From positions 1-64,000 of IMG/VR virus record IMGVR_UViG_3300035703_000034: a DNA stretch of 64,000 nucleotides. One strand, written 5' to 3'. Shown here piece by piece: positions 19,287 to 45,691 of this stretch (position 1 is its first letter; the number at the start of each line of letters is the position of its first letter). The notes below the pieces were generated by a model that saw only the letters and a program-made list of their open reading frames with translations, had not been told where the DNA came from and did no database searches. The position numbers and the translations under genes were made by a program. This DNA is from a virus.

Positions 19287-20192
19287 ATGCGTAAAACGGC
19301 CTACTTGACCCACCTCCCGTTCGATCCCATCACCGAAGGCGAGGAGGCACAGGCCACGTCGCCCTTCCCGGTCGATGCGCACGGGCGACCGATGACGATG
19401 CTCCAGGCGTACTACCAGGCCCGCCCGCTCAACCCGCTGCTGCCGATGCCCGCGTTCGAGCCGAGTGACGCCTACTGGCACACCATGCTCTTACGCGCAC
19501 AGCTGCGGCAGCAACACCAGGGACTGGGGGAACTGATGCGACCCATCGACTTGTACCGCGTCAAGCGCGCGACCGAAGAAGCCCACCGGTACGACGACCG
19601 GATCGACCCCATCTTGCTGCACCCGCTGCTCTCCGCGCGGCCCAAGACGCTCGACGAGCTGGGCGATCGGCGGCAGGAGTACAACATCGGCCTCGGTGCC
19701 GGCGGCACCATCGGCGCGTTGGGCGGGGCCGCGCTCGGCATGATGGCCCGGAAGTTCTACCCGAAAGGCCCGGCGCTCATCCCGGCCGCGGGGGCGCTGA
19801 CGGGCGCCGCGACGGGAGCCGGCCTGGCGCTCTGGCCGACGACCATCAAGCGCTTCATGTCGAACGTGGACCGCCACGATCGGGCCGTCAAGGACTTCGA
19901 AGACATGACGGGCAAGGAGCTTTCCTTCACGACCCGTCACCCGTACCTGACGGACGCGGGCGCTGCGATCGGGGGCGGACTCGCCGGCATGGCCATCGGC
20001 GCGGCGGTGGGCGGCATGACCGGACACGGCGCGGTGCGCGGGGCGTTCATGGGCAACATCGGCGGATCGATCATGGGCCCGTTGCTCAGCATGGGTGCAC
20101 AGGCGGGCCGCAAGGACGAGGTGGGGCCGTACATCGACCCGAAGCGCCTGCGCGGCTACGGCTACACGCTCTGGGATCACTACGAGGATTGA
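19287..20192 (+). CDS. Glycine-zipper membrane protein with HPYL module
   Basis: Two GxxxG hairpins separated by 'HDRAVKDFEDMTGKELSFTTRHPYL'. Contains KTA and KRA motifs. Confidence 0.7.
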   Translation: MRKTAYLTHLPFDPITEGEEAQATSPFPVDAHGRPMTMLQAYYQARPLNPLLPMPAFEPSDAYWHTMLLRAQLRQQHQGLGELMRPIDLYRVKRATEEAHRYDDRIDPILLHPLLSARPKTLDELGDRRQEYNIGLGAGGTIGALGGAALGMMARKFYPKGPALIPAAGALTGAATGAGLALWPTTIKRFMSNVDRHDRAVKDFEDMTGKELSFTTRHPYLTDAGAAIGGGLAGMAIGAAVGGMTGHGAVRGAFMGNIGGSIMGPLLSMGAQAGRKDEVGPYIDPKRLRGYGYTLWDHYED

Positions 20193-20201
20193 GGCTTGAC
20201 C

Positions 20202-21464
20202 ATGACCACCCCTGTTGTTGTTGATCCCATCCTCCGCCACCCCTGGGCCGCCATCAAGCCCAAAGACGAGCAAGATTTCAAGGGCAAGAGCGGTGAGCTG
20301 GTCCGGGCCGGCATCGTTGGCGGCGTGCTCGGCCTCGGCGCGGGCGTCGCGGCGGTGAAGCTGCTGCACCAGCGCGCGGTGGACAAGGTGCTGCGCCGCG
20401 ACATACACAGCCTCTTCGATCACACGGTCACGCTGCCGTTCGCCGCGGACCCATTGGGGTTCGTCAACAGCAGCGTCGGAGTTGGCGGTGGGTTGGGCAT
20501 AGGTGCGGTCGCGGCGCGCCAAGCGTATGATCACATCAGTCGGCACGCCGAGGCGGCACAGCAGTACGAGGCGCAAACGGGGCGAAAGATTCCCTTCATG
20601 GCGCGGCACCCCTACCTGCTGTCCGCAGCACCCGCCCTGGGTGGCGCGGCCCTGGGTGCCGCTGTCGCCGGCAAGGGTCTCGGCATGCGCACGTTGGGAG
20701 CAAGTGGCGGCCTCTTGGTGGGCGGCCTCGCGGGGTCCCCGTTGCTGGCCAACGCCGGCGCCGACGCCCGTGCGGCGTTCTTCGACGTCCACAAGCAGGC
20801 CAACACCATCAACCCGATCCTGCTCCACCCCACCCTCGTCAAGCGGCCTGCCACGCCGGAAGAGGCCGAGGCGCGCGGCAAGGACTACGCGGGCTTCATG
20901 GGGACCGGGGCGGCGCTCGGCACCCTGGCGGGCGCGGGCCTCGGGCTGTACCTGGCCAAGCGCTACGGCGACGGCGACATGCCCGCGCACATGGCCGGCT
21001 TCGGCGGCGCTGTCGGCGGTGCCCTGGCCGGCACGGTCGCCGGCGGTGCCGGCGCGTACTTCAAGCGCTACGCCCAGGCCATCCAGGAGCACGACGCTGC
21101 GGCGCGCCAGTACGAGGCCCAGTCCGGCACGAAGCTGCCGTTTTCGGTGCGGCACCCCCACGCGATGCTCTGGGGGCCGATGGCGCTCGGCACGGCCGCG
21201 GGTGCCGCGCTCGGGTCGCATGCCCGTCTGGGCCTCTCGCGGGCGTCGCGGCCCGTGGGTGCCGCGATGGGCCTGATGGGCGCGGCCATGACCGCCGCGC
21301 CGCTGTCGGCGGCCCATGCTTACGCGCAGCGGCGCGACATGTTCAAGGACAAGGTTGGTCCGCTGTCCACCGAGATGTACGGGGGCGACTTCGGCTCCGA
21401 CATCCAGACCCTCGAGGATCGCCAGAAACAGCGCGACGAGGTGGCCGAGCTCGGGATCTCCTGA
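20202..21464 (+). CDS. Glycine-zipper membrane protein with two tandem HPYL modules
   Basis: Internal duplication ('DPILRHP'/'NPILLHP'; 'KIPFMARHPYL'/'KLPFSVRHPHA') joined at 'VHKQA'. Confidence 0.7.
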   Translation: MTTPVVVDPILRHPWAAIKPKDEQDFKGKSGELVRAGIVGGVLGLGAGVAAVKLLHQRAVDKVLRRDIHSLFDHTVTLPFAADPLGFVNSSVGVGGGLGIGAVAARQAYDHISRHAEAAQQYEAQTGRKIPFMARHPYLLSAAPALGGAALGAAVAGKGLGMRTLGASGGLLVGGLAGSPLLANAGADARAAFFDVHKQANTINPILLHPTLVKRPATPEEAEARGKDYAGFMGTGAALGTLAGAGLGLYLAKRYGDGDMPAHMAGFGGAVGGALAGTVAGGAGAYFKRYAQAIQEHDAAARQYEAQSGTKLPFSVRHPHAMLWGPMALGTAAGAALGSHARLGLSRASRPVGAAMGLMGAAMTAAPLSAAHAYAQRRDMFKDKVGPLSTEMYGGDFGSDIQTLEDRQKQRDEVAELGIS

Positions 21465-21474
21465 CGCCCGTCCC

Positions 21475-24400
21475 ATGCGCACCCCCGAAGAAACCTTCCA
21501 GGCAATGAGCGCCGAGCTCGGCGAGGGCCTCAAGCAGGCTTTTCCCGTCGTGACGAAGGACGGCAAGGCGCTGCAGCTGCTCAAGCTGCACCCGCCCGAG
21601 CTGCCCGACCCCCACGATTACAACGCGCAGAAGGCCGCCATCATGGCGGGCGAGACCTGGGGCACGCCGCTCAAGGCGACGGTCGCGCTGCTCGGCCCCG
21701 ACGGCAAGCAGTTCGACAAGCGCGACATGCGCCTCGGCACGCTCCCGACGCCGACCAACCGGCACACCTTCATCCTCAACGGCAAGGAGTACCAGGTCAA
21801 CCACCAGCGTCGGCTGCGGCCCGGCATCTACACCAAGTTCAGCCGGCTCGGCGAGGCGCTGGCCGACTTCAACCTCGCCCAGGGCCGCAACTTCTCCGTG
21901 GGGCTAGACCCCGACGAGAACCGCTTCTTCATGCGCTACGGCAACACCCACGTGCCGCTGCTGCCCGTGCTCCAGCACCTCTACGAGCAGAAGTCCGTCG
22001 GACTCGGCAAGGCCTTCGACCACCCGGTGACGCCCGACGAGGCCACGAGCGCCCTCAAAACCCTCCACACCATGGTGCTGCCCAACGCGCCCGTGCCAGA
22101 TAACATGGGCGCCCTGAAAACGGCCCTAAAAGAAAAGCTGGGGCTGGCGAGCCTCGACCCCGACGTCACGGGCATCACCGTGGGCAACCGCCACGAAACC
22201 GTGTCAGGGCGCGCGTTGCAGGACGCGGCGAGGCAGGTGCTCGCCGTCCACAAGCGCGACGCGCTGCCGAGCACCAAGGAGCAGCTCGCCTTCACCGAGG
22301 TCCACGGCGTCGAGGACTTCCTGAAAGAGAAGTTCGTGAAGGGCCGCACCCAGCTGAAGTACCGGCTGACGCCCGCGCTCGCCACCAAGACCGAGCTTGC
22401 GAAAATCAACGTCAAGGGCGCGGTCGATGGCCTCATCAAGGAGTTCTTCATCGGCTCCGCCCAGTCCAACGTCGTGCAGCAGATCAACCCGCTCGAGATG
22501 AAGGAGAACGCCTTCAAGCTCACCAGCCTCGGCGAGGGCGCCATCGGAGACACCCACGCCATCAGCCCCGAGGTGCGCGTCATCCACCCGAGCAGCATGG
22601 GCTTCATCGACCCCGTCCGCACCCCCGACAACGCCAAGGCCGGGGTCGACGTGCGCTTCGCCGTGAACACCAAGAAGGTCGGCAAGCAGATTTTCACCAA
22701 GGTGAAGGACCTCCAGACCGGCCAGTACGTCATGAAGTCGCCCGTCGAGCTCTACGACGCCGTGGCCGCTCCCGACCTCGAGCCCGCCGCCAACGGCCTC
22801 GTGCGCGCCGTGCACCGCGGCGCCCTGGTCGACGTGCCGCTGCAGCAGGTGCGCTACCAGCTGCCCGCCAACGACAGCTTCACCGTCAGCACCACGCTCG
22901 TGCCGTTCCTCCAGAACACCCACGCCCACCGCGCCGCCATGGGCGCGAAGATGCTGGGCCAGGCCGTCAGCCTGCTCGACCGGGAGGCCCCGCTCGTCAC
23001 GACGCCGCACGCCGAGACCGGCATCGGCGACTTCCTCATCAAGGCCCCCGTGGCCGGCACCATCACGAAGATCGAGAACGGCGTCCTCACGCTGACAGAT
23101 GCAAAAAACCATATCCATCGCATCAGCTACCCCCACGAGTTCCCCCTCAACGGCCACAGCTTCTTGCACGCCGAGCTCAAGGTGAAGGTCGGCGATCGCG
23201 TGGCGGCGGGCCAGCTGCTGGCCGACAACAACTTCAGCCGCAACGGCCAGGTCGCCCTCGGCAAGAACCTGACGGTCGCCTACATGCCCTACAAGGGCCT
23301 CAACCACGAGGACGCTGTGGTCATGACCCGCCAGGGCGCGGACAAGCTCATATCCCAACATCTGCATACGTTCGAGGCCCTCAAGGACGATCGCGCGGTG
23401 CACAGCAAGAAGGCTTACCAAGCGCACTACCCCGGCGAGTACGAGCTCAAGCACTTCGACAAGCTCGACGACGACGGCGTCGTGAAGGTCGGGCAGGTGC
23501 TCGAGCACGGCGACCCCATCATGCTCGGGTTGCGCAAGCGGCTCATGTCCCCCGAGCAGCTGCTGCTCGGCAAGGCCAACAAGGGCGTGCTCAACCCCAT
23601 GATCGACACGACCCAGGCCTGGGATCGCCCGTACCCGGGCAAGGTCTCGGCCGTGCAGAAGACGAGCCAGGGCATCAAGGTCACGATCACGGCCAACGCG
23701 CCCATGCAGGTGGGCGACAAGGTCTGCGGCCGGCACGGGAACAAGGGCGTCGTCTCCGTCATCATCCCGAACGAGGAGGCCCCCCGCACCGCCGACGGCA
23801 AGGTGCCCGACCTCATCCTCAACTCGGCCGGGTTGACCTCCCGCATGAACAACGGCCAGCTCTACGAGGTGATCGCCGCCAAGGCCATCCAGAAGCTGGG
23901 GCTGCCCCAGCAGACCTTCCCGCACTTCGCGGGCGTCAACACCTACAACCTGGTCAAGACCCTGCGCGACAAGGCCAAGATCTCCGAGACCGACGAGCTG
24001 TTTGACCCCAAGACCGGGCGCAGCCTGGGGCCCACGTTGATGGGTCCGATGTACGTGCTCAAGCTCTTCAAGCAGGCCGAGACCGGCTTCTCCGCCCGGG
24101 CGGGCGGCGAGTACGACATCGACCTGCGCCCCGCGAAGGGCGGCGAGGAGGGCGCGAAGTCCGTCGGCACGCTCGACTTCTTCAGCCTGCTCTCGCACGG
24201 CAGCCGCAAGCTGCTCGCCGACGCGCACCTGAAGAGCGAGTTCAACCCCGAGGTCATGGAGGCCATGTGGAAGGGGCAGCCGCTGCCCCCGCCCAAGCCG
24301 ACCTTCGCCTGGAACAAGTTCCAGGGCATGCTGACGGGCATGGGGCTCAACGTGAAGAAGACCGGCAACCAGCTCGCCTTGCTGCCGCTGCACGACCACG

Positions 24401-25767
24401 AGGTGCTCGCCATGTCGAACGGCCGGGTCACCGAGCCGTTGACGGTCTTCGACAAGCCCGACCCCGTGACGAACCTGCCCTTCCGCCCGGAGCCGGGCGG
24501 GCTCTTCGACCCCACGGTGACGGGCGGGCTCGTCGGCAACCGCTGGAGCCACATCAGCCTGCACGAGCCCGTGCTCAACCCCATCTTCAAGAACGCCGCC
24601 CGCACGATCCTCGGGCTGCCCAAGGCCCAGTTCGAGCAGACCCTTTACGAGAAGGGCGCCGGGCACGTCCAGCAGCAGCTGAGCCTGATCGACCCCGCCA
24701 AGCGCCTCGCCGAGCTGCAATCCGAGCTCGCCAAGACCAACTCGACCTCGAAGCGCGACGCCATCTACAAGCAGATCAAGTACCTGCGCCCGCTGGCCGA
24801 CAACAAGCTGAAGCCCGACACGGCCTACGTGCTCAACCACATCCCCGTGCTGCCGCCCGCCATGCGCCCCATCTACCCGGACCCCCAGACGGGCCGGATG
24901 GTCGTGTCGGACGCCAACCAGCTCTACAAGAACCTGCTGCTGGTCAACCAGCAGCTGCGCACGCACAGCACGCTGGGCGACGCCGCCACGACGACGGCGC
25001 TGCGCCAGGGGCTCCACGAGGCCGTCGCGGCCGTGCAGGGCTTCGACGGCACGCCCGAGAAGCTCGGCTTCAACCAGGAGCCGCCGCCCTCGGGCTTCCT
25101 CAAGGTCATCACCGGCACGGCCCAGGCCAAGGACGGCTTCTTCCAGTCCAAGCTGCTCTCCCGCCGTCAGGACGTCGCGGCCCGCGGCGTGGTGGTGCCC
25201 GACACGAGCCTGGAGATCGACGAGGTGGGGCTGCCCAAGCCGATGGCGATGAAGCTCTACCGCCACCACGGCGTCGGCGAGCTGGTGCAGTCGGGCATGC
25301 CGCTGCTCAAGGCCGCCGAGGAGTTCGAGAACGAAACCCCCACTGCCGTGAAGGCCGTCCAGGCTGCTATGATGAAGTTCCCCGCGATTGTCACGCGCGC
25401 ACCCTCGCTGCACAAGTTCAACTTGATGGGCTTCAAGCCCAAGATCGTCGACGGCAAATCGGTGCGCGTGAACACCCTCGTGCTCAAGGGCTTCAACATG
25501 GACTTCGACGGGGACCAGAGCACCATCCATGTGCCCATCAGCCCGGAAGGGGCCGCCGACGCGCGCCGCATGATGCCCTCGAACAACCTGTTCAGCCCGC
25601 TCAACAACGGCCCCGTGCACGTGCCCTCGCAAGAGACGGTCTACGGGCTGTGGAAGGCGACGGTCGCCAAGGGCGCCCCCGTCCAACGTTTCCCGAACAA
25701 GGCCGCCGCCCTCGCGGCGTTCCAAGCAGGTCGGATCCGCATCACGGACCCCATCGAAATCGGTTAA
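21475..25767 (+). CDS. DNA-directed RNA polymerase, beta subunit fused to N-terminal half of beta'
   Basis: Beta motifs 'FILNGKEY', 'VRVIHPS...DPVRTPD', 'RAAMGAKM..QA', 'GDKVCGRHGNKGVV', 'SRMN.GQ'. Beta' motifs 'GLFD', 'IPVLPPAMRP', 'KLLSRRQD..ARGVV', 'RAPSLH', catalytic 'FNMDFDGDQ'. Confidence 0.93.
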   Translation: MRTPEETFQAMSAELGEGLKQAFPVVTKDGKALQLLKLHPPELPDPHDYNAQKAAIMAGETWGTPLKATVALLGPDGKQFDKRDMRLGTLPTPTNRHTFILNGKEYQVNHQRRLRPGIYTKFSRLGEALADFNLAQGRNFSVGLDPDENRFFMRYGNTHVPLLPVLQHLYEQKSVGLGKAFDHPVTPDEATSALKTLHTMVLPNAPVPDNMGALKTALKEKLGLASLDPDVTGITVGNRHETVSGRALQDAARQVLAVHKRDALPSTKEQLAFTEVHGVEDFLKEKFVKGRTQLKYRLTPALATKTELAKINVKGAVDGLIKEFFIGSAQSNVVQQINPLEMKENAFKLTSLGEGAIGDTHAISPEVRVIHPSSMGFIDPVRTPDNAKAGVDVRFAVNTKKVGKQIFTKVKDLQTGQYVMKSPVELYDAVAAPDLEPAANGLVRAVHRGALVDVPLQQVRYQLPANDSFTVSTTLVPFLQNTHAHRAAMGAKMLGQAVSLLDREAPLVTTPHAETGIGDFLIKAPVAGTITKIENGVLTLTDAKNHIHRISYPHEFPLNGHSFLHAELKVKVGDRVAAGQLLADNNFSRNGQVALGKNLTVAYMPYKGLNHEDAVVMTRQGADKLISQHLHTFEALKDDRAVHSKKAYQAHYPGEYELKHFDKLDDDGVVKVGQVLEHGDPIMLGLRKRLMSPEQLLLGKANKGVLNPMIDTTQAWDRPYPGKVSAVQKTSQGIKVTITANAPMQVGDKVCGRHGNKGVVSVIIPNEEAPRTADGKVPDLILNSAGLTSRMNNGQLYEVIAAKAIQKLGLPQQTFPHFAGVNTYNLVKTLRDKAKISETDELFDPKTGRSLGPTLMGPMYVLKLFKQAETGFSARAGGEYDIDLRPAKGGEEGAKSVGTLDFFSLLSHGSRKLLADAHLKSEFNPEVMEAMWKGQPLPPPKPTFAWNKFQGMLTGMGLNVKKTGNQLALLPLHDHEVLAMSNGRVTEPLTVFDKPDPVTNLPFRPEPGGLFDPTVTGGLVGNRWSHISLHEPVLNPIFKNAARTILGLPKAQFEQTLYEKGAGHVQQQLSLIDPAKRLAELQSELAKTNSTSKRDAIYKQIKYLRPLADNKLKPDTAYVLNHIPVLPPAMRPIYPDPQTGRMVVSDANQLYKNLLLVNQQLRTHSTLGDAATTTALRQGLHEAVAAVQGFDGTPEKLGFNQEPPPSGFLKVITGTAQAKDGFFQSKLLSRRQDVAARGVVVPDTSLEIDEVGLPKPMAMKLYRHHGVGELVQSGMPLLKAAEEFENETPTAVKAVQAAMMKFPAIVTRAPSLHKFNLMGFKPKIVDGKSVRVNTLVLKGFNMDFDGDQSTIHVPISPEGAADARRMMPSNNLFSPLNNGPVHVPSQETVYGLWKATVAKGAPVQRFPNKAAALAAFQAGRIRITDPIEIG

Positions 25768-34886: not shown

Positions 34887-34895
34887 GGCGATCTC

Positions 34896-35546: not shown

Positions 35547-35555
35547 AGGGCCTCC

Positions 35556-36635
35556 TCAGACGTGGTGGAAGCGCGTCATCTTCCAGAGCCGCTGCCAGAG
35601 CAGCACCGTCAAGCGATCGTTGAGCTCGAAGCGATCGGCGTGACCGCCGCGCAGCCACACCGCCGGCAACGCACCGAGCGAATTATATGCCCAGTCGACG
35701 AGATCACACCCGCCGCGCTGCTGGAGCCACCAGCCGGCAAACGCCTCCGGCAGCGCCGGCAGCGGCACCGGCGCCCCGTCGCGGGGGTGAACGACGAGCT
35801 GCTGCGCGTGCCGCACCTCGGCCACGGCCTCGGCGAGCGCGGCGTCGAGCTGTCCGATAAACGCCCCCTGCTCGTCCCAGCCCTCCGGCACGGGCACCAG
35901 CCAGCTGCGCAGCGGCACGCCGAGCTCCTTCTCCAGCCACTGCAGCAGGGCCACCTGCTCGAGCGGCGGCAGCACCGACAGCAGGCTGCGCACCTCGCTG
36001 GCGATCGCCTCGCGGGAGCGGGTGCTCTTGAGCAGCGCCACGATGCGCTTGGCGATGTCCGCCTGGACCCGCTCGTCCGGCGCGACGACGTGGAAGCCCT
36101 CCGCCACCAGCTGCGCCATGTGCACGAGCCACGTCACGTCGTCGCTCGCCAGGCGCACCTGCCGCGTGCTGAAGGTCAGGCGCCGCAGCGTCTCGGGGCA
36201 CAGCTGCAGGCAGGCGACCGCCGCCGGGTCGGTGCAGACGCGCCACTCGTCGTCCGTGAGCACGACAAACGGTCGCTTGACGTCGAGCCGGTGGCCGCCG
36301 AACAGCCCCGTGCGGTGATCGCGATCCCGCCCGCGGCCGTACACGTACGCGCGCCCCGGCCCGAGGTGCGTGTCGCTCTCGAGCTCCCGGACCGTCGCGA
36401 AGCCGGGGACATGGCGGCTCGTGTAGGGGAACACCAGCCCGCTCGTGTCCGGCAGGCGCGCGAAGAAGCGCGCCGAGCATGCGCGCTCAAACGTGCCCTT
36501 GCTCGGGTAGAAGCCCAGCCCCAGCTGCGCGCGATCGGGCACGGTGACGAGCTGGTCGAGCGCGAGGGCGAGCGCCTCGTCGCGCGCCGCCTCGAGCCAG
36601 GGGCCGAGGTCCTTGACCTTGGGGTCAGCCGGCAT
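35556..36635 (-). CDS. Degenerate DnaG-primase-like protein
   Basis: 'LGLGFYP', 'LVFPY...GFATVREL', 'GLFG', 'VVLTDD' weakly resemble the primase N-terminal/TOPRIM region. Confidence 0.35.
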   Translation of the reverse strand: MPADPKVKDLGPWLEAARDEALALALDQLVTVPDRAQLGLGFYPSKGTFERACSARFFARLPDTSGLVFPYTSRHVPGFATVRELESDTHLGPGRAYVYGRGRDRDHRTGLFGGHRLDVKRPFVVLTDDEWRVCTDPAAVACLQLCPETLRRLTFSTRQVRLASDDVTWLVHMAQLVAEGFHVVAPDERVQADIAKRIVALLKSTRSREAIASEVRSLLSVLPPLEQVALLQWLEKELGVPLRSWLVPVPEGWDEQGAFIGQLDAALAEAVAEVRHAQQLVVHPRDGAPVPLPALPEAFAGWWLQQRGGCDLVDWAYNSLGALPAVWLRGGHADRFELNDRLTVLLWQRLWKMTRFHHV

Positions 36636-37290
36636 GGAACTGGTGCAGCGTCAGCTTCGGGTCGATCGGCGGGGCCTGGTGCAGCGCCTGGCGCCGGGCC
36701 TCCATCAGGTAGTGGGCGCGGTGCGCGCCCTCCGCGAGCTGCCCGAGGCTCGCGCCGGCCGTCATGGCGTAGACGGGCGTGTGCGGACCGAAGCGCTGGC
36801 GCATCGCGATGCCGAGCGCCGCCCCGGCCAGCGCCCCGCCCCAGGTGCCGGGGTGGACCGTGACGAGGAACGGGTTCTCGTTGACGTAGCGGCGCTCCAG
36901 CGCGTGGTCCGCGAAGGCGCCCGACACCGGCGGCGTGACGGCGATGAACTCGAGCGGGACGTTGCTGGCCTGCTTCTGCTGCCCGATCAGGTGGTAGTAG
37001 CGGTGCAGGCCCTCGAGCCCCATGCCCGTCGCCAGGCCCACGCCCATGCCCACCAGCGGGTGGCCGCCCGCCAGCTGGCCGAGGCCGGCGCCTACCAGCC
37101 CGCCGCCGTACGCGACCGGGTGCAGCATGCTCATCACCGGGTGCTTGGTCTGGTAGTCGGCCTCGAGCCGATCGTCGTGAAACCGCTCGCCCGGCATGTG
37201 CCAGTCCGTGATCCAGGCCGCCTCCGGCATGGCGCTGGCGAGCTTTGAAAGCGCCGGGTGGATAATCGAAGTGGAAGGTCCAGGACGCAT
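36625..37290 (-). CDS. Glycine-zipper membrane protein, KxA/HP-module family (start uncertain, 37230 alternative)
   Basis: Two GxxxG hairpins, 'SKLAS', 'QKQAS', 'ENPFLVTVHPG'. Confidence 0.6.
   Translation of the reverse strand: MRPGPSTSIIHPALSKLASAMPEAAWITDWHMPGERFHDDRLEADYQTKHPVMSMLHPVAYGGGLVGAGLGQLAGGHPLVGMGVGLATGMGLEGLHRYYHLIGQQKQASNVPLEFIAVTPPVSGAFADHALERRYVNENPFLVTVHPGTWGGALAGAALGIAMRQRFGPHTPVYAMTAGASLGQLAEGAHRAHYLMEARRQALHQAPPIDPKLTLHQFHAG
37259..37267 (+). promoter_or_regulatory. Putative promoter motif variant TGGATAATC
   Basis: About 20 nt upstream of ATG 37289, with an upstream GCTTT as in other copies. Confidence 0.35.
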
Positions 37291-37690
37291 GGCAGGCATC
37301 ATTTCTTTGGAAACCTCGGTCTCGCTGGCGGCCGGCTACGGCCGCATGACGGCGTCGGTGCGGGACGCGGACGACGTGCTGCTCGCCGAGCAGCATGGCC
37401 CCACCTCGACCAACCCACTCTTATCATCCCTCGAAGCCGCCGTTTGGGGCCTGCAGCTCGTGGCCCGCCGCGGCGACACGGAGGTCGTCCACTGGGTCGA
37501 CAGCCAGGCGCTTGCCGATCGCCTGTCGCGCGCGCCGCGGCCGGGCGATCAGGGCGGCGAGCTGGTGAACGCTTACCGATCGCTGGCCGGTCGGATCGGG
37601 CGCGTGCGCGTGCTGAAGCGCCCGCATGCGGGGTTGCAGGATTTTGTCGCCCGCAAGGCCGCCGAGTCGGTCGACGGGGTGGTTGGCTAG
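37289..37690 (+). CDS. RNase HI-like fold protein, probably degenerate
   Basis: 'STN...LEAAVWGL', 'WVDSQAL', 'QDFVARKA' match the RNase HI layout. The first catalytic Asp appears replaced ('LETSV'). Confidence 0.5.
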   Translation: MAGIISLETSVSLAAGYGRMTASVRDADDVLLAEQHGPTSTNPLLSSLEAAVWGLQLVARRGDTEVVHWVDSQALADRLSRAPRPGDQGGELVNAYRSLAGRIGRVRVLKRPHAGLQDFVARKAAESVDGVVG

Positions 37691-37701
37691 AAAGGAAGCC
37701 C

Positions 37702-37830
37702 ATGCAGAAAACCGGTGTGCTCCAGTGCCCCCAGTGCCACAGCCGGGAGGTCATCCTCACGGAAGAGGAACGTGGCGAACAGGTCGTGGTCTGCGCCGAC
37801 TGCGACCACGAGTGGGTGCTGCCCGTCTAG
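37702..37830 (+). CDS. Small Zn-ribbon protein
   Basis: 'CPQCHS...CADCDHEW', with an AAGGA RBS. Confidence 0.6.
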   Translation: MQKTGVLQCPQCHSREVILTEEERGEQVVVCADCDHEWVLPV

Positions 37831-39395
37831 TAGCGCATCCCGCCCGTCTGCGCGAGGTGCAGCAGCATGTTGGCGTAGACGCATGTGTGCATGAAGTCGT
37901 CGGGGCTGTCCTCGGGGTGGTCGTACTTGAACTTGTCGTTGTTGTTGCGGTCGTCCAGGCGCTCCTCGAAGATGCACAGGATGTCCGAGGCGTAGTGGCG
38001 GAACTGGTTCCACTCCGGGAACCAGAACTGCTTCCTGCGCATCTTCACGAACGTCTCCGTCATCGCCTGCGTGCGGTTCGTCTTGTAGATCTGGGCCTTG
38101 TCGTCCCAGCGCACCATCTCGTGCTGCTCGCTCACGTACATGAACCGCTGGACCGGCCGCCGCAGCTTCTGCTCGAGCAGCCGGCTCTGCGCCACGCCCG
38201 CGCCCCAGTCGGCCCCCACCATGTCGACGGTGAACATCGTGCAGTACGACGCGATCTCGTCGACCTGCTTGAGCACGTCCGGCTCCAGGAACCGCTTGGC
38301 GAAGATGAGCCGCAGCCGGTTATCGACCGTCAAGCCGAAGATCGAGAGCACGGTGTAGCTGCGGCGGGCCGTCAGCCCCCAGTCGATGCCCGCCATCAGG
38401 AAGTGGTACTGCATGTCGTCGGGGATGAGCTGCTCCATCAGCTGGTAGCCGGGGTCGCAGCAGGCCTTGAGGTCGTCCTCCGAGAGCAACGTGACGCCGG
38501 AGCCCGCCGACACGCCCATCACCTCGTTCAGGAACGTGTTCGGGTCGCTGCCGCCGTGGTACTTGCGCAGGATCTCCTGCCACTTGCCCGCGTCCTCCGT
38601 GTGCATCGGCAGCACGATTTGCGGGATGCGGAAGCCCGACCAGGCCTTGTCCGCGTGCCCGGCCGTCGCGTACCAGCGCCCCTGCCGGACGTCGCACACG
38701 GCCTTGCACGACTTGCACGTGAAGCCCCGATCGCCGATGTTGTCGGTGGACGGCAGGTTCCAGTGGCCGCTCGGGCACGGCACCACCCACTCGCACATCG
38801 TGCTCTTGCGCCAGGTCTCCTCCAGCGTGTTGCCGACCGTCTTGGCCGTGCCCGTGCGCATGACGAACTGCTTGGCGGAGGGCTGACCCGACATGACCTC
38901 CTCGATGATCGCCAGCTCATCGCCGACCATGTCCTGAATTTCGTCCTCGAAGACCCGGTTGGCGGACAGGCCGCGCAGGCTCTCCAGCTGCGAGGTCGCG
39001 CCGAAGTACATCACCGAGCCGTTGATAAACGATCGCTCACCGGTGTTGCGGCGGCAGTGGCTGTCGACGAACCAGCGCCGGATCTCCGGGCTGTCGTTGA
39101 TGAAGCTCGCCACACGCTGGTTGCTGAAGCGGCGCGACTGGATCAAAGACGGGTGGACCGTCAGGCTCTCCCAGTACGGCTCTCCGATGCCCTCGGAAAC
39201 CCCGAAAGCCGCAACAGCGGTCGATTTCGCGACTTGTCGGCCCGACAACACGACGATCTTGCGGCTGTCGATCTCGTAGATCGTCTGCCACGGTGGGTAG
39301 CTGTCGAGCGAGAAGGGTTTGCCCCGCAGCTGGAGCGTCCGCTCCGCGATGGTGCGTCGGTCCGTCTCGATGTGAATTTTCGATCCGGTTTCCAT
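37827..39395 (-). CDS. Terminase large subunit
   Basis: Walker A 'LSGRQVAKST', 'LRGLSA', Walker B 'VFEDEIQD', Zn-finger linker, nuclease 'AGIDWG' and 'PDDFMH'. Confidence 0.88.
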   Translation of the reverse strand: METGSKIHIETDRRTIAERTLQLRGKPFSLDSYPPWQTIYEIDSRKIVVLSGRQVAKSTAVAAFGVSEGIGEPYWESLTVHPSLIQSRRFSNQRVASFINDSPEIRRWFVDSHCRRNTGERSFINGSVMYFGATSQLESLRGLSANRVFEDEIQDMVGDELAIIEEVMSGQPSAKQFVMRTGTAKTVGNTLEETWRKSTMCEWVVPCPSGHWNLPSTDNIGDRGFTCKSCKAVCDVRQGRWYATAGHADKAWSGFRIPQIVLPMHTEDAGKWQEILRKYHGGSDPNTFLNEVMGVSAGSGVTLLSEDDLKACCDPGYQLMEQLIPDDMQYHFLMAGIDWGLTARRSYTVLSIFGLTVDNRLRLIFAKRFLEPDVLKQVDEIASYCTMFTVDMVGADWGAGVAQSRLLEQKLRRPVQRFMYVSEQHEMVRWDDKAQIYKTNRTQAMTETFVKMRRKQFWFPEWNQFRHYASDILCIFEERLDDRNNNDKFKYDHPEDSPDDFMHTCVYANMLLHLAQTGGMRY

Positions 39396-39906: not shown

Positions 39907-40683
39907 ATGGATCGCAAACCGCAGCTGATGGCCGAGGCCGCCCAGCTCGTCGAGCGGCACCGCGCCGACGGCGGCAACCTGAACGAGCTGATCGCCAAGC
40001 ACGCCAACGACCAGGGCTACAGCGAGCAGCTCTGCAGCAGCCTCGTGTGGTGCGTCAACCGCCAGAGCTTCAAGCAAGCCATGGCGCTCGACCAGCACGA
40101 CGAGCCGTCGATTGCCGACCCCGTCGCCGTCAAGCGCGCCCGCACGCGACCGGTCGCCGCCAGCGCCGAGCCTGTCAAGCAGGCGTCTACCGCCTGGTTG
40201 CCGACCGTCAAGCGCGCCAACAGCCGGATGCAGGGCGGCATGGTCCACACCCGCGCCGAGGGCCCCGATCACGGGCCGGCGCTGCGCGCGCACCTGGACC
40301 GTGAAAAGCGGGCGGCGGACACGGGGCTCAAGCTCGCGAGCGCCCGGACGCGCATCACGCTCGAGGACATGCACCACCAGACCCGGCTCATCAAGCAAAT
40401 TGGGCTCGACAAGCAGGCGAGCTTTCAGCAGCAGCTCGCCGCGTGCGAGCCGCCGGTGCGCGCGCTGCTCGGTGCGCTGCTGGAGAAGTCCGCGTACCAG
40501 CCGACGCTGCACACCCGCCAGGACCTCACTTTGCTGGTGCCGGCGGCGCTCAACGACTTCGACCGGTTGAAGCAGGCGGCAGACAGCATCGTGCGCGTCG
40601 GCGACGCGGCGGCCGCGCTCGAGGAGCTCAAGGTCACCCTGGCCCAGGATCGCGAGGCGGTCTCGGGCGTTGTGAGGTTCTAA
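39907..40683 (+). CDS. KxA-saturated helical protein (putative prohead core/scaffold)
   Basis: 10 of 13 lysines are in K-x-A. Lies at the start of the head cluster. Confidence 0.6.
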   Translation: MDRKPQLMAEAAQLVERHRADGGNLNELIAKHANDQGYSEQLCSSLVWCVNRQSFKQAMALDQHDEPSIADPVAVKRARTRPVAASAEPVKQASTAWLPTVKRANSRMQGGMVHTRAEGPDHGPALRAHLDREKRAADTGLKLASARTRITLEDMHHQTRLIKQIGLDKQASFQQQLAACEPPVRALLGALLEKSAYQPTLHTRQDLTLLVPAALNDFDRLKQAADSIVRVGDAAAALEELKVTLAQDREAVSGVVRF

Positions 40684-40685
40684 CC

Positions 40686-41111
40686 ATGCCTTTGCTGGAT
40701 TCGAACGCCAGACACTTCGTCCCGCAGACCGGCGTGAACCTGCTCAAGCCGATGCTGGCGGTCGGCGCGGCGGGCCTCGCAATCAGCGCCGGCGGCCAGC
40801 TCTGGAGCAACCTGCAGGTGCAGCGATCGTTCCAGACGATGCTGCAGCGCTACCCCGAGCTCCAGCGCGAGAACCCGACGCGGGTCAAGCAGCTCTTCGA
40901 GACCATCAGCAACGCGGCGCCCGACGTCGCGAAGGACCCGATGGTGGCGGGCTCGCTCATCAAGCGGATGCTGAACTACGACGGGATCGACCACGCGACC
41001 TACATGGAGCTGGTGTCGACTCAGGAGAAGATGACCAAGACGCGCCTGGCCCAGGTGACGCCGTTCACGTCGCTTGCTGGCCCGACCGTCGAGTTTGCAC
41101 GTCACTGGTAA
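40686..41111 (+). CDS. Hypothetical head-cluster protein with N-terminal hydrophobic helix
   Basis: ATG 40686 just after the upstream stop. 'APDVAKDPMVAGSLIKRM'. Confidence 0.6.
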   Translation: MPLLDSNARHFVPQTGVNLLKPMLAVGAAGLAISAGGQLWSNLQVQRSFQTMLQRYPELQRENPTRVKQLFETISNAAPDVAKDPMVAGSLIKRMLNYDGIDHATYMELVSTQEKMTKTRLAQVTPFTSLAGPTVEFARHW

Positions 41112-41142
41112 GGTTTCCGATCAGCGGCTTTTTCCAAAAGTG

Positions 41143-41151
41143 CTGATAATT
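41143..41151 (+). promoter_or_regulatory. Putative phage promoter motif CTGATAATT
   Basis: Preceded by GGCTTTTT. Upstream of an AGGAGG RBS. Confidence 0.65.
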
Positions 41152-41193
41152 CCACCGACTCATTGGACCCCCGATCAGGAGGAAGAAGACAAC

Positions 41194-42423
41194 ATGTCGA
41201 ACACTGCATGGGATATGTACCAGGCCATGATGAAGCAGTCCGCTGACGCCCTGGTGCCGGGCCAGGTGGGCATGGGGATGACCCCGGGGGTCACGGGCAT
41301 GCTGGACTCGGACCCGATGACGGCCAGCAACTCGGCCATCGCGGCCCAGCGCGCGGCGATGCAAGAAGCCGCCCTGCTCCACGCCAACGCCGACGCCGGC
41401 GCCGGCTACTCGACGCCCGCTCCTGGCACGAGCCCCTCGCTCCAGATGGCCGCGGACGTCAAGGCCGCATCCGTCGTCGACGAGGCCATCAAGTTCGCCG
41501 AGCACGTGTACCTGATGAACAAGCAGGCCGTAGCTTACGTGGAGGGGCCGACCGGCGCGGCCGCCGCGGACGTCGAGGCGGTTCTGCAAAACCGTGCGTT
41601 CTCGCGTCTCGGGGCGGATTACAAGTTTGAGCCCAAGGGCATGATGGCTCAGCTCAAGGCTGCTCCCGGCGCTTGGCTCGAAATGGCCAAGGGTAACCGC
41701 GGCCTGGGGCGGCAAGCGATGGCCATCGGCGGGCCGCTCGCGGCCGTGGGCGCACTCGGCTACGGTGGTTACCATATGATGCAGCCGCCGGCGCCCGAGA
41801 TGCTGCCTCCGGCGCCCGAGATGGAGCCGAAGGCCGCCTTCCAGCTGCCGTTCACCAACTACCACCTCGTGCACCGTCCCACGATGGGTCAGCGCGTGGA
41901 TCGCGCCGTCGAGTTCATGCGGGCCCAGGCGCAGAAGGTCAACAACCCGGCGGGCTACGTCGCGATGGGCGCCACCGGTCTCGCAGGCGCTGCGGGCGGA
42001 GCCTACATGATGGATCCTGAGATGGCGGCGATGAAGTCGGCCGCGGACACGGTGGTCTACGCCAACATGCTGAAGCGCGCGGCTGAGGAAGACGCCGCCG
42101 CGGCTGCGGCAGATGCCGCCAAGCCGGGCTTCATCGACAAGGCCAAGGGGTACTTGAACAGGGGCGTCAACGCGTACGACACGTTCTCGGCCGCGCACCC
42201 CCGCATGGTGCCTGCGGGCGCGCTCGCAGTCGGTGGTGCCGCCGGCTTCGGCGCGGCCCACTACATGGCCCACCAGGCGCAGCTCGCCCAGCAGGCGGCG
42301 GCGGCCGAGCAGGGCCTCGCGGCCCCGCAGAACGAGGCGATGGCCTACATGAAGGCCGCCGCGCTCAACGAGGCGGCCAACGCGGGTCAGCTGATGGCGC
42401 TCCGCCAGCTCGGCCTCGCCTGA
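41194..42423 (+). CDS. KxA-rich polyprotein-like protein with three Gly-rich hydrophobic segments
   Basis: 8 of 16 Lys are in K-x-A. Repeated 'G..A..GA.GYxM' hydrophobic segments. Confidence 0.65.
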   Translation: MSNTAWDMYQAMMKQSADALVPGQVGMGMTPGVTGMLDSDPMTASNSAIAAQRAAMQEAALLHANADAGAGYSTPAPGTSPSLQMAADVKAASVVDEAIKFAEHVYLMNKQAVAYVEGPTGAAAADVEAVLQNRAFSRLGADYKFEPKGMMAQLKAAPGAWLEMAKGNRGLGRQAMAIGGPLAAVGALGYGGYHMMQPPAPEMLPPAPEMEPKAAFQLPFTNYHLVHRPTMGQRVDRAVEFMRAQAQKVNNPAGYVAMGATGLAGAAGGAYMMDPEMAAMKSAADTVVYANMLKRAAEEDAAAAAADAAKPGFIDKAKGYLNRGVNAYDTFSAAHPRMVPAGALAVGGAAGFGAAHYMAHQAQLAQQAAAAEQGLAAPQNEAMAYMKAAALNEAANAGQLMALRQLGLA

Positions 42424-42491: not shown

Positions 42492-43937
42492 GTGCCCAAC
42501 GATTTTTCGTTCGCGCCCCACGAGAACGACCCCACCGACATCGCCAAAAACCCTTGGAAGCATCACGCCAGCGCCGCCGCCGCCGGCGGGGCGACCGGCG
42601 CTGCCATCGGTACGGCGCTCGGAGCCTGGGCAGGCGCCGGCAAAGGCTTCAAGTCCATGCTCGGGCATGCCGGCGCCGGTGCGCTCTTCGGGGGCGGCCT
42701 CGGCACGGGTCTGGGCTATCACAAGTCCGAAAAGAAGCAGCGAACCGTCGAGCAGGCCTACGGCGCCAACGATCCGTTTGCCATGGACAAGCTGAGTTAC
42801 GACCAGGCCCACGACGCCGGGCGGCAGTTTGCGTGGCGGATGCTGCGCGAGAAGCTGGCGCACCTGGGTCCGCTTGCGCCGCTGGGGCTGCTCGACGGCT
42901 CGCTGCAGGCTCCAGCGCTGCCCCAGGTCCCTAGAGGGAGCACGTTTAACCCCCGCGACTTCGACTTCGACGGCTTGCTGGTGCCCATGAAGCAGACCCC
43001 CGGAGGACGTGTCAGAAACGAGCTTCCGATCGCCTCTGACTGGGCGTCCGTGCAGCGCGGGGGGCGAGGCAAGCCGCGTGTGGTAACGGTGCACCCCAAG
43101 CTGCTGGTGAGTCCCGAGCGGGCTTTGGCGCTGAAACACCAGGTCACACGAAACTCGACGACCGGCGGAGACGCGCTGGCCATGGAGCACGCGGCCAACG
43201 TCGCCCTGGTGGAGGAGCACAACCGGAATGTCCTGAACGCGCACTTTGCCGGGCACCCGCACCGCGCGCACCTCGTGGACTACGTCCTGCAAAAGCACCG
43301 TGAAAATCACCAGGATTACTTTGACTTCGACAGGTTCGAAGGCAACGTGAGGCGCGTGGCCCCGGAGCCGCCGCGCTCGCAAACCGCCGCGCGTACGAGC
43401 GGCGCACCGTCTGGTACACCTGCGCAGGTTTCTCCCGCCGCCGCTGCGAGTGCGTCCACTACGTCCGCGGCGGGCGCTGCGACTTCGACCCCGCATGCAA
43501 GCTCCGGCGCGGCGTCGTCAGCTGCCAGCTCCGCAGCCGGCGCTCCCACTGCCCAGGCCACCGGCGCTCCCACGGCCCAGGCCACCGGCGCTCCCACGGC
43601 CCAGGCCACCGGCGCTCCCACTGCCCAGGCCACCGGCGCTCCCACGGCCCAGGCCACCGGCGCTCCCACTGCCCAGGCCACCGGCGCTCCCACGGCCCAG
43701 GCCACCGGTGCGGCGTCGACCACGCACGGCTCGAACCGTCAGCCACGCTCGGTCGCGCCTCCACAGCAGACCCTCTCAGAAGCAGCGACCGACTTGTGGA
43801 CGAACCACAAAGGCAAGCTCGGCCTCGGCGCCGCGGCGCTGGGCCTCTCGGGTCTCGGCTACTACGCGTACATGCAAAACGAGCGGCGCAACGCCGATCA
43901 GCTGTTCCAGCCGCGCGAAGACGTGATGGGCGCGTGA
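42492..43937 (+). CDS. Multi-module glycine-zipper protein with low-complexity linker
   Basis: N-terminal GxxxG hairpin, 'EKLA', GAPTAQAT repeats, C-terminal TM helix. AGGAGG RBS. Confidence 0.65.
   Translation: MPNDFSFAPHENDPTDIAKNPWKHHASAAAAGGATGAAIGTALGAWAGAGKGFKSMLGHAGAGALFGGGLGTGLGYHKSEKKQRTVEQAYGANDPFAMDKLSYDQAHDAGRQFAWRMLREKLAHLGPLAPLGLLDGSLQAPALPQVPRGSTFNPRDFDFDGLLVPMKQTPGGRVRNELPIASDWASVQRGGRGKPRVVTVHPKLLVSPERALALKHQVTRNSTTGGDALAMEHAANVALVEEHNRNVLNAHFAGHPHRAHLVDYVLQKHRENHQDYFDFDRFEGNVRRVAPEPPRSQTAARTSGAPSGTPAQVSPAAAASASTTSAAGAATSTPHASSGAASSAASSAAGAPTAQATGAPTAQATGAPTAQATGAPTAQATGAPTAQATGAPTAQATGAPTAQATGAASTTHGSNRQPRSVAPPQQTLSEAATDLWTNHKGKLGLGAAALGLSGLGYYAYMQNERRNADQLFQPREDVMGA
43539..43706 (+). 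repeat. Tandem repeat 7 x 24 bp encoding GAPTAQAT
   Basis: GGCGCTCCCAC(T/G)GCCCAGGCCACC x7. Confidence 0.95.
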
Positions 43938-45691
43938 CCGTGGTCGCACCCGACGAACGCATTAAGCAGCGGATTCTGGCTGACCCCTACGGCGAGGCGG
44001 ACGTCATCATCCACCGCTCGCGCGACATCGGCGCGACGGTCGGCAGCGTGGTTCCCATCGTGGGACCCTTGGTGGGCGCGAACGTCGGCCGCGTGCATGG
44101 CATGTACAAGGCGGTGCAGCTGCACGACCAAGCAGCAAAGGAGTATGCGGCGCGGGGCGGTCACCTGAACGTTCTGGCCCGGCACCCGTACGCCACTGGC
44201 CTGGTGTCGACCGCGGGTTTGTTTCCGGTCGGCGCAGGCACAGCGGGGCTCGCCATCGGGCATCAGCTGTCGCGCGCCGCCGTCCCGCAAGACCTCGCCG
44301 CAGCCCGCGCCACCACCGACGACGAGAAGCTGGACCACCCGTACGAGCTGCTGACGCGCAACACCGTCGGCGGCGAGCTCATCGGCGGCGCCCTGGTCGG
44401 AACGGCCGGAACGCTCGCGGGCCGTCACTACGGCCAGACGCACGCCGGTGCCATCAATGCGAGCCTGACGAAAACCGAGGAGCTCGGACGCAAGTTTCTG
44501 GCCGGCGACCTGGGCCTCCCAATCTCGCGCACCCCCCGGGGAATCAACATGCCGGGCAACTTCTGGAAGTACGGCCTCGGCGTGACAGGCGCGGTCACCG
44601 GGTTTGGCGTCGGCGCGGCGCTGGGGTCGGTGCCTGGCATCCTCGGCACCATCAAAGAGCACGGCGAGGCGGCCGCGCGCGCCGAGGCCAAGGGGCAGAA
44701 GCTCCCCTACCTGGTACGCTCGCCCTACCTGGCTTACCTCGGGGCCGGTGCGGTGACCACGCCCATCGGCCTGGGCGGCGCGAAGAACCTCGCCTTTGAA
44801 AACGTCATCCAGTACAAGCGCCAGCAAAAGACCCCGCCCGCCGACCTGTCGGCGGATCTGGGCGGGTTTGCGAGTCATCTGCACCGCACCTACCTCGGAC
44901 AGCCCGAGGCCGCGGTTGCGAAAAAGAAGCCCACCCGCACCAAACGTGCTGCAGCCCACAGTTCCCAAGGAGGAAGCCCGATGCCCAGTCCGCTGCCAAC
45001 CCCGACCGTCGCCGCACCGCCCGGTCCCGTTCCGGTGCAGCCGCAAGGAAGCGCGCTACCCCCCAAGATGCCGTTCATCGTCAGCCATCCGTACCTGGCG
45101 TCAGCCGGCTACAACGTGGCTGGTGGTGCGCTGGGCGCGGGCGTTGGGTCGCTGTCCGGTGGTGTGGCGGGCAAGCTCGTCCGGCCGGTGGCAAACGCCG
45201 TTGAGGCGGGCCTCAACGCCTACGTCAAGACACCCATGGAAGGCCGCTTCAGCGTGCCGCTGCATCTTGCTGCCGCAGCGGCGGCCCGCGGTGCCAACGT
45301 GCTCGGCCGAGCGGCTGAAACCGGCGGACGGCTGGCTGGTGGCGTGGCGGGTGCCGGGGCGGGCCTGCTGGCGGGCGACGTCGCCGCCGTCGCGCACCAC
45401 TTGCATGATCGTTTGGAGTACGCACGGACGTTGCGCAGCGCCGGTCACTCGGACCGGCTGCCGTTCGTGGTCGAGCATCCGTACCTGACACGCGCGCCGA
45501 TGTCCCTCCTCCCGGTCATCGGCCAGTACGGGATCGCGCCCGCTGTGCATTACAACGCGCGCAACGCCTTCGAAGACAGCTTCCGTGAAGCTGCCAAGCG
45601 TCCGGTCGCGCCGACGGAGAAGGCGGCCGCGATGCAGGACGCCTACGCCGCCGGCCGCACGTTTGCCTACCAGCTGGCGCAGCAAGTCTGA
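43934..45691 (+). CDS. Glycine-zipper membrane polyprotein with four HPY/SPY modules
   Basis: 'VLARHPYA', 'LPYLVRSPYL', 'MPFIVSHPYL', 'LPFVVEHPYL', with TKRAA and EKAA motifs. GTG start overlaps the upstream stop. Confidence 0.65.
   Translation: MTVVAPDERIKQRILADPYGEADVIIHRSRDIGATVGSVVPIVGPLVGANVGRVHGMYKAVQLHDQAAKEYAARGGHLNVLARHPYATGLVSTAGLFPVGAGTAGLAIGHQLSRAAVPQDLAAARATTDDEKLDHPYELLTRNTVGGELIGGALVGTAGTLAGRHYGQTHAGAINASLTKTEELGRKFLAGDLGLPISRTPRGINMPGNFWKYGLGVTGAVTGFGVGAALGSVPGILGTIKEHGEAAARAEAKGQKLPYLVRSPYLAYLGAGAVTTPIGLGGAKNLAFENVIQYKRQQKTPPADLSADLGGFASHLHRTYLGQPEAAVAKKKPTRTKRAAAHSSQGGSPMPSPLPTPTVAAPPGPVPVQPQGSALPPKMPFIVSHPYLASAGYNVAGGALGAGVGSLSGGVAGKLVRPVANAVEAGLNAYVKTPMEGRFSVPLHLAAAAAARGANVLGRAAETGGRLAGGVAGAGAGLLAGDVAAVAHHLHDRLEYARTLRSAGHSDRLPFVVEHPYLTRAPMSLLPVIGQYGIAPAVHYNARNAFEDSFREAAKRPVAPTEKAAAMQDAYAAGRTFAYQLAQQV

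Follow-up and report, generated by a model that had tools for sequence, protein, structure and literature searches.

Module genes and module architecture

We analysed a family of glycine-zipper modules encoded in the first 64 kb (64,000 nucleotides; hereafter, the window) of a 106,380-bp virus contig of ~70% G+C, IMG/VR record IMGVR_UViG_3300035703_000034. The contig has an estimated completeness of ~51% (CheckV), its DNA was found in subsurface metagenomes by a search of sequencing runs (one of them probably its source; no RNA run was among the matches listed), and the phage is a myovirus, as a tail sheath gene is encoded. A six-frame search for the motif core [RSE][HS]P[YH] with the upstream context H..A..YE..G.KLPF yielded exactly seven places: one in the gene at 19287-20192, two in 20202-21464 and four in 43934-45691. 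A hidden Markov model (HMM) of the seven cores gave no further match in the 106-kb contig (next best E-value, 0.6), and 43934-45691 was recovered in four stretches (E = 6e-7) by a profile that excluded the four-unit gene, being built on the two-module protein plus its two nearest homologs. An earlier annotation made from the letters of the window (the sequence-only reading) had proposed at least seven copies of a module, split 1/2/4 over three genes; the number and the split were borne out by the motif search and the HMM, and six copies carry the full signature, whereas the third unit of 43934-45691 is partial, with a Pro-rich linker followed by PKMPFIVSHPYL and without the H..A..YE helix.

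All three genes and the features described within them lie on the plus strand. The translation of 19287-20192 is a 301-amino acid (aa) predicted precursor (P0001) with a 95-aa N-terminal domain, a K-R-A site and one full module. The site, K93-R-A95 (19563-19571; LYRVKRA|TEE), lies 11 residues upstream of DPILLHP; the module itself (19605-20189) runs from DPILLHP through helix 1, helix 2, a connector, helix 3 and helix 4 to an RK..VGP tail, with its signature NVDRHDRAVKDFEDMTGKELSFTTRHPYL at 19863-19949. The second gene, 20202-21464, encodes a predicted 420-aa two-module precursor (P0002), whose ATG at 20202 coincides with the start of database protein P0004. The signatures of its module 1 (HISRHAEAAQQYEAQTGRKIPFMARHPYL, 20532-20618) and module 2 (AIQEHDAAARQYEAQSGTKLPFSVRHPHA, 21078-21164) stand on either side of a K-Q-A site between the two modules (20793-20801; FFDVHKQA|NTINPILLHP). 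The third gene, 43934-45691, begins with a GTG that shares bases with the stop codon of 42492-43937 (GTGA), abuts the protease gene from the upstream side and encodes a 585-aa protein of four reduced units. Three of these carry full signatures (unit 1, 44108-44194; unit 2, 44645-44731; unit 4, 45401-45487) and one carries a partial signature (unit 3, 45011-45097); a K-R-A|A site (44942-44950) divides the protein into halves, and a K-A-A|A site (45620-45628) lies 20 residues from the C-terminus, ahead of a AYAAGRTFAYQL-type tail. G+C at third codon positions (GC3) in the three module open reading frames (ORFs) is 0.82-0.89, of the coding type.

We defined the module from a 20-module alignment and a 16-sequence alignment. 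It comprises ~190 residues and starts with D-P-I-L-L-H-P, then P....E....RR, followed by helix 1, a variable basic loop, helix 2, the connector (H-D-x-A-A-x-x-Y-E-x-x-x-G-x-x-L-P-F-x-x-R-H-P-Y), helix 3, helix 4 and an R-R..F tail. Residues invariant in the 16 sequences are His and Ala in the connector helix, H-P within RHPY and five Gly, including that in the connector turn. The connector is best explained as an amphipathic helix (H-D-x-A-A-x-x-Y-E), a turn (G-x-K-L-P-F) and a helix cap (R-H-P-Y) that link two hairpins. AlphaFold2 modelling of 19575-20189 with the 16-sequence alignment gave four long helices (predicted local distance difference test score, pLDDT, 77; predicted template-modelling score, pTM, 0.63), with confidence peaking over the signature and connector and a small beta bridge pairing the N- and C-termini; for the complete two-module protein, an alignment of three sequences gave a poor model (pLDDT 47.8), which we set aside. 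An internal duplication of the N-half and C-half of the module was unsupported (hhalign 7%), despite the resemblance of DPILLHP to LPF..RHPY.

Each module contains approximately four charge-free runs of 19-34 residues (residues 26-48, 55-81, 118-144 and 146-168 in that of 19287-20192), seven times the density elsewhere in the proteome, and none of the 3,976 residues of the module bodies is Cys, vs 0.77% in the proteome. The helices are marginally hydrophobic (Kyte-Doolittle 1.0-1.9), their best 19-mers give simple Hessa sums of +2.4 to +10 kcal/mol on a rough scale without position terms, and basic residues were seen by inspection beside every helix, on all sides. Neither the translocon-level hydrophobicity nor the positive-inside pattern of Sec-type polytopic inner-membrane proteins was found in the modules, and the helices resemble amphitropic small-residue helices with post-translational insertion more closely than they resemble translocon substrates. 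The transmembrane hairpins of the sequence-only reading thus stand as charge-free stretches of 19-34 residues, while their transmembrane placement is something that we infer, because the hydrophobicity is only marginal.

Searches of large databases revealed few relatives and no named family. A word-indexed search of 5.8 billion clusters returned two homologs of the two-module protein 20202-21464, P0005 (49% identical) and P0006 (43-44%), and an exhaustive HMMER search of 1.84 billion cluster representatives returned 13 proteins in total, three from the window and none with a name; E-values of family homologs reach 1e-54 to 1e-217. There was no match to the two-module protein in 50,697 phage records (tblastn), to the modules in PADLOC, to a module profile in PDB sequences, or to any module protein among the Gly-zipper families of Pfam (hmmscan, E <= 1). 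Best PHROGs E-values were 0.19-0.6, none significant, and the best NCBIfam row was YiaD (NF053611; E = 0.002, 17.8 bits vs a cutoff of 175). With the single-module model as query, Foldseek found nothing at E <= 0.001 in either PDB or BFVD, the 'glycine zipper domain' protein of BFVD standing at E = 0.45, and the best VIA-align Z of 7.9 at a root-mean-square deviation of 10.6 is within noise for helical models. Both fold searches were headed by what we take to be small complex I subunits (Tim17/NDUFA11-like; Foldseek E ~2-5), a lead only; ESM Atlas scores, likewise a lead only, were <=0.85, in rows that include Gly-zipper families. Related-locus searches found none in metagenome contigs (queries A1, P0005), in viral contigs (A1, P0005, P0009, P0011, P0007, P0014) or in GTDB genomes (A1). 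The view that the module belongs to no named family was therefore upheld across Pfam, PHROGs, NCBIfam, PADLOC, PDB sequence and fold searches, which also disclosed no known non-virion family.

Lys-x-Ala at module borders and in head proteins

We read two relatives alongside this contig, G001 (75 kb, 57% G+C) and G002 (153 kb, 66% G+C), both collinear with it; the nearest relatives with names are phage Arash of Salmonella and phages D69, D181 and D148 of Vibrio, with polymerases ~31-32% identical. A block consisting of a Gly-zipper protein, a sigma factor, module gene(s) and RNA polymerase (RNAP) is conserved in this phage, G001 and G002. In the window, a sigma-70-like factor (18491-19249, plus; phrog_351, E = 4.5e-6) precedes the module genes 19287-20192 and 20202-21464, directly downstream of which begins the gene of the fused beta/beta'(N) RNAP (21475-25767, plus; Pfam Rpb2_6 E = 1.9e-51, Rpb1_2), 32% identical to Arash gp206. 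The G002 protein P0012 is the orthologue of 19287-20192 in the same place upstream of RNAP, and the G001 homolog of the two-module protein has 429 aa. This phage carries seven units and G002 one; G001 has three full modules and, in a composite gene, two xHPY units. The four-unit gene is restricted to this lineage, with no orthologue in G002 and a 283-aa composite at its position in G001, upstream of the G001 protease. Checked in the three readable genomes, modules, protease and RNAP occur together in 3/3. The family was absent from Arash and D69 by tblastn, profile search and a check of the genes upstream of RNAP: the small genes just upstream of both RNAPs are not Gly-zipper proteins, and in Arash the module profile touches Gly-rich stretches only.

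The 95-aa N-terminal domain of the single-module precursor (19287-19571), with the pattern M.K.AY...SPFP.DAHG.P...L.A[YF], is conserved in G002; in G001 it forms a 112-aa gene of its own, in which K-x-A-Y stands close to the start. Between this N-domain gene and sigma, G001 has another small gene, 57996-58379 (minus), for an extra 127-aa Gly-zipper protein whose leader is VKQA|S; it has no counterpart in the window.

Across all homologs, Lys-x-Ala (K-x-A) lies 2-11 residues upstream of 12/12 non-N-terminal module starts; the other six module starts lie 3-9 residues past the initiator Met. The sequence-only reading had noted (D/N)PIL.HP just after a KxA, an association that these counts confirm and extend. 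The chance of a K-x-A within 16 residues upstream is 0.06-0.13 per start, and the starts represent ~five independent lineages. Inside 20 module bodies (3,976 residues), we found one K-x-A vs 23.9 expected, a ~24-fold depletion (Poisson 1e-9) as would follow from avoidance of the site within mature parts. Most family members have no K-x-A besides their junction site: the two-module protein 20202-21464 contains only that at 20793-20801 vs 3.0 expected by shuffling, and the junction K, Q and A are invariant across P0002, P0005 and P0006.

Each module is preceded by one of three elements with [Y/F]..K-x-A at its end: another module, another domain or a leader of 13-14 residues. Stand-alone modules carry the 13-14-residue leaders (P0011, MSGIYQAYLAKKA|A; P0013, MSLPYHLYLLKRA|A; P0014, MLAYRLYLSIKQA|A), and K93-R-A95 of 19287-20192 matches the KRA|A, KQA|A and KKA|A leaders of P0013, P0014, P0011 and P0012. 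The same parts occur separated and joined: the N-domain (112 aa) and module (P0013, 221 aa) of 19287-20192 are two genes in G001, and in the partial homolog P0022, units 1-2 of the four-unit protein follow a 42492-like part, with KTA|S at the joint; the 283-aa composite gene of G001 is a further case. Present at joints, avoided elsewhere, and with fused and separate forms interchanging, K-x-A behaves as expected of a processing site.

The candidate enzyme is the head maturation protease (45752-47137, plus; phrog_18299, E = 2.4e-7), the presumed K-x-A cutter, which is 65% identical to the protease of G001, 59-60% to that of G002 and 30% to Arash gp222 and gave no match in Pfam and PDB sequence searches. 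Taking expectations from composition-preserving shuffles, we observed K.A[AS] five times in this protease vs 0.57 expected, and in the scaffold-like proteins five times vs 0.36 (39907-40683), six vs 0.61 (47497-48039), three vs 0.22 (48300-48533) and six vs 0.54 (66069-67112), an enrichment of 8-14-fold that is repeated in the orthologues of G001 and G002. Eight K-x-A positions are kept column for column in the three proteases. The major capsid protein (50298-51242, plus; phrog_2522) contains EKVA|SAIKEELIL, with K-V-A at 50388-50396, and its conservation with G002 starts exactly past K-(V/A)-A|SAIKEELIL. The sigma leader ends in KQA|A (18545-18553), and a K-x-A|A leader is found on sigma in all three phages; a Y..[YF]L..K.A leader occurs in relatives on the SNF2 helicase (28377-30056) and the 41074 family. 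K-x-A is also enriched in the Gly-zipper families 36625-37302 (K.A[AS] two observed vs 0.1 expected) and 41074-42423 of this genome and in the G001 orthologue of 17850-18494. Judging by this distribution over the sequences, K-x-A followed by Ala or Ser is likely to be the cutting motif of the head protease.

Genes near the Arash protease homolog gp222 exhibited the same enrichment (K.A[AS] seven vs 0.58 in gp220, six vs 0.77 in gp223, five vs 0.44 in gp225), so the presumed code reaches a cultured phage with public virion proteomics. Taken with gp242, these Arash proteins are enriched 5-12-fold.

Several Gly-zipper proteins of the head region also end alike, in a short helix A.AG..FA..L, usually straight after K-A-A: KAA|AMQDAYAAGRTFAYQLAQQV (45620-45688), KAA|ALNEAANAGQLMALRQLGLA (42380-42423) and KAA|AYLGQQFALRQMGLI (C-terminus, G001 32288-33067, minus). 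It may be a common docking or targeting tail.

Candidate capsid cargo and its alternatives

We infer that the modules are capsid cargo processed by the head protease, a reading whose chances we judge to be evenly balanced; they would probably be membrane-inserting ejection proteins linked to a virion RNAP, with the membrane step the less certain part. The virion-packaged, K-x-A-cut polyproteins of the sequence-only reading gain strong indirect support from K-x-A presence and depletion, the leaders, fusion and fission, the motif's enrichment and conservation in head proteins, gene position and the virion proteome of Arash. The sequence data favour none of its three proposed roles (DNA-entry conduit, early-infection vesicle, superinfection or anti-defence effector) over the others, and PADLOC gave no match in favour of defence. 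Its picture of small proteins cut from every gene has to be amended for 43934-45691, which would yield two halves and not four small proteins, because it has only one internal K-x-A site.

Under the proposed mechanism, precursors would be recruited to the prohead, where the protease 45752-47137 would cut after the Ala of K-x-A, as it would in its own chain, in the scaffold-like proteins and in the capsid protein. The freed cysteine-free modules would remain in the head with DNA, and probably with RNAP and sigma; during infection they would exit via the tail and insert into the inner membrane of the host. There, association of their small-xxx-small helices could yield a pore or anchor aiding the entry of DNA and transcription enzymes. 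In mass spectrometry of Arash virions, the RNAP beta/beta' homolog ranked first in abundance (3,516 spectra), the sigma and helicase homologs were likewise among the most abundant proteins, and the beta'(C) subunit was detected, with carry-over of abundant enzymes named by the authors as an alternative explanation (PMC10585845). Arash gp97 is also among the most abundant virion proteins (1,060 spectra, 97% coverage; PMC10585845). This basic, 439-aa protein (L018:3925-5244, minus) has 6-7 single Gly-zipper helices and lacks the signature. By analogy, gp97 can be regarded as a functional analogue of Gly-zipper cargo, not a homolog. In this phage, the 1,433 residues of the beta/beta' RNAP include one Cys, and there is none in sigma, in the SNF2 helicase or in a 1,387-aa protein (3423-7586); counts elsewhere are normal (ribonucleotide reductase 15, terminase 11, protease 7). 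This near-absence of Cys fits proteins that must traverse tail and periplasm, and the ejected virion RNAPs of N4 and DEV likewise lack Cys (PMC11445570).

Several observations weigh against this reading. The K-x-A statistics include related sequences, so their P-values are overstated; the RNAP has no conserved K-x-A leader, and three unit junctions in 43934-45691 are without K-x-A. First modules of two-module proteins start at Met, straight into DPILLHP, and since they have no leader, their targeting would need another signal. Membrane insertion is not assured, because the helices are marginally hydrophobic with basic residues all round. The two main module genes sit in the transcription block, not among head genes, and the family is not essential to the clade, given a single module in G002 and none in Arash and D69.

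The whole K-x-A evidence would apply equally if the modules were cut by the protease but stayed out of membranes as internal head proteins: tight Gly/Ala bundles, soluble or self-associating, that serve as core or inner-body components or as organisers of DNA and RNAP, in the manner of the inner-body and E proteins of phiKZ/SPN3US. The marginal hydrophobicity, the compact four-helix model with paired N- and C-termini and the great abundance of the Gly-zipper-repeat protein gp97 in Arash virions agree with such a role. However, four charge-free helices of 19-34 positions would give a soluble protein an unusual surface, and the best fold-search rows, although weak, are mostly small membrane subunits; we regard this alternative as unlikely.

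Conversely, the modules might be membrane proteins that never enter the virion and are made during infection, with possible roles in superinfection exclusion, lysis control or anchoring of the transcription or replication machinery; K-x-A would then be a conserved linker or structural element and not a protease site. The two main genes do neighbour sigma, RNAP, ribonucleotide reductase and helicase rather than head genes, each module has four charge-free helices, and an accessory family of 1 to 7 copies per genome is typical of host-interaction genes. This explanation leaves the 24-fold K-x-A depletion in modules unexplained and cannot account for K-x-A at the capsid N-terminus, in scaffold-like proteins and in the protease, nor for the four-unit gene abutting the protease. 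Moreover, a Sec signal peptide would have to be longer and less polar than the 13-residue leaders, ordinary insertion by the translocon would require greater hydrophobicity, and PADLOC gave no match, so that this, too, is improbable.

Chance similarity among low-complexity, Gly/Ala-rich ORFs, which a 70% G+C genome would favour by inflating Gly, Ala, Pro and Arg codons and yielding many spurious ORFs, and which does describe several looser relatives that are alike in composition only, is refuted as a compositional artefact and has next to no probability for the modules, given coding-type GC3 (0.82-0.89), syntenic orthologues in the 57% and 66% G+C phages G001 and G002, the invariant H, A, G and H-P in 16 sequences, and homolog E-values reaching 1e-54 to 1e-217.

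An extension of the capsid-cargo reading is that modules, other K-x-A Gly-zipper proteins, sigma, helicase and RNAP form one ejected infection kit, in which the modules would oligomerise in the host inner membrane into a wide conduit or a membrane-bounded early compartment; we consider this a long shot. Were it true, protease-released four-helix units would make a new phage-built membrane structure, with a multisubunit RNAP starting transcription through or within it, and the compartment would parallel the vesicle that phiKZ-like phages form early in infection. The family is a concrete candidate for how RNAP-carrying large myophages move DNA and bulky enzymes across the inner membrane. If the code holds, sequence would suffice to predict capsid cargo throughout a little-studied clade of ~150-200 kb phages.

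The closest parallels to the module leaders are the internal proteins of T4. IPI, IPII, IPIII and Alt bear capsid-targeting leaders of ~10-19 residues that are cut by the prohead protease gp21 at (L/I)-x-E motifs; these proteins are ejected with DNA, and their gene set is accessory and variable. Stand-alone modules similarly bear a short N-terminal leader (13-14 residues) ending at a putative protease site. Unlike in T4, the putative site of the modules is K-x-A followed by A/S, and the putative cargo is four-helix and Gly/Ala-rich, often in tandem; PHROG and Pfam searches gave no homology to IPI, IPII, IPIII or Alt. The K-x-A tag differs from the Glu-directed sites of both T4 and phiKZ. The capsid maturation protease of herpesviruses, assemblin, cuts (V/L/I)-x-A|S sites after Ala, with Ser at P1'. 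The putative site here is of the same Ala|Ser type, with Lys at P3.

SPN3US and phiKZ carry a multisubunit virion RNAP and have many head proteins matured by the prohead proteases gp245/gp175; in SPN3US, propeptides are cut at several motif copies, cargo families are paralogous, and nearly all cuts take off N-terminal propeptides of 20-254 residues (PMC10052503). The present phage resembles them as a large myophage with a multisubunit RNAP and paralogous putative cargo; its modules, however, are chained, and no membrane-type module chain is described for SPN3US (PMC10052503). No sequence or fold relation of the modules to SPN3US/phiKZ proteins was found in Pfam, PHROGs and BFVD searches.

Among the Schitoviridae N4 and DEV, the genes of the envelope-spanning ejection proteins gp72/gp73 adjoin and are co-transcribed with that of the ejected RNAP (PMC11445570), and, according to a further report, the proteins pass from a soluble to a membrane state (PMC13434306). 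The module genes likewise adjoin an RNAP gene whose product is almost Cys-free. Schitoviridae are podoviruses with a giant single-subunit RNAP and no reported protease-cut polyproteins; in contrast, this phage is a myovirus with a beta/beta' enzyme, and there is no homology. T7 gp14/15/16 and P22 gp7/16/20 are capsid-internal, leave with DNA and build a cross-envelope conduit (PMC8954989, PMC8402733). Unlike the modules, they have no modular repeats and form no polyproteins, and PHROGs, Foldseek (PDB and BFVD) and VIA-align gave no sequence or profile match, and no fold match above the noise for helical models, between modules and podovirus ejection proteins (N4 gp51/52 included).

With the Pfam families Gly-zipper_Omp/OmpA/YMGG and Rick_17kDa_Anti and with NCBIfam YiaD, the modules share small-xxx-small helical hairpins. 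These generic glycine-zipper two-transmembrane families are without the DPILLHP start, the H..A..YE..G.KLPF..RHPY connector and the four-helix unit, and the modules score far below the thresholds of PF13488, PF13436, PF13441, PF05433 and NF053611. Head-protease-matured capsid cargo and ejection-protein genes beside a virion RNAP gene are thus already known kinds; what is new is a module family with no named relative or fold match, its tandem and separable layout, and a Lys-x-Ala tag with a presence-and-avoidance pattern.

Looser relatives and other genes

We investigated five looser relatives named by the sequence-only reading; none carries the signature, and profile comparison (hhalign) divided them. 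The best case is 36625-37302 (minus), a two-repeat family with ..HP...S.LHP..YGG and a Gly-zipper hairpin, which gave 85% probability against the C-terminal half-module. Each of its repeats is preceded by K-x-A|S (37237-37245, 36967-36975), and these sites are kept in G001 and G002. It is certainly the same kind of predicted precursor as the module genes and, by sequence comparison, plausibly a distant relative of the module family. The 214-aa protein 17850-18494 (plus) has a C-terminal Gly-zipper hairpin; its gene opens the sigma/modules/RNAP block, it has an orthologue in both G001 and G002, and it remained borderline (66%). The relationship was not sustained for the other three. The N-terminus of 42492-43937 (plus), a 481-aa Gly-zipper protein upstream of the four-unit gene, gave 33% (its N-terminal part is also found in the 283-aa composite of G001), and 41074-42423 and 34896-35546 gave 0.3% and 1.8% to the module; these three have only Gly/Ala-rich helices in common with the modules. 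A 24-nt tandem repeat in 42492-43937 (7.2 copies, 43537-43708, 96% matching) encodes (TGAPTAQA)x7, with a Pfam PT repeat match of E = 8.7e-7.

Other genes include a separate beta'(C) RNAP subunit (30138-32144), the large terminase (37827-39395, minus), the tail sheath (54750-56690, minus) and the portal (63321-65318, minus). The large terminase ORF has 997 aa in G001 (34893-37886, plus) vs 522 aa here, and the ribonucleotide reductase 1,141 aa in G001 (47916-51341, minus) vs 852 aa here; the enlarged G001 proteins may contain inteins or be fusions.

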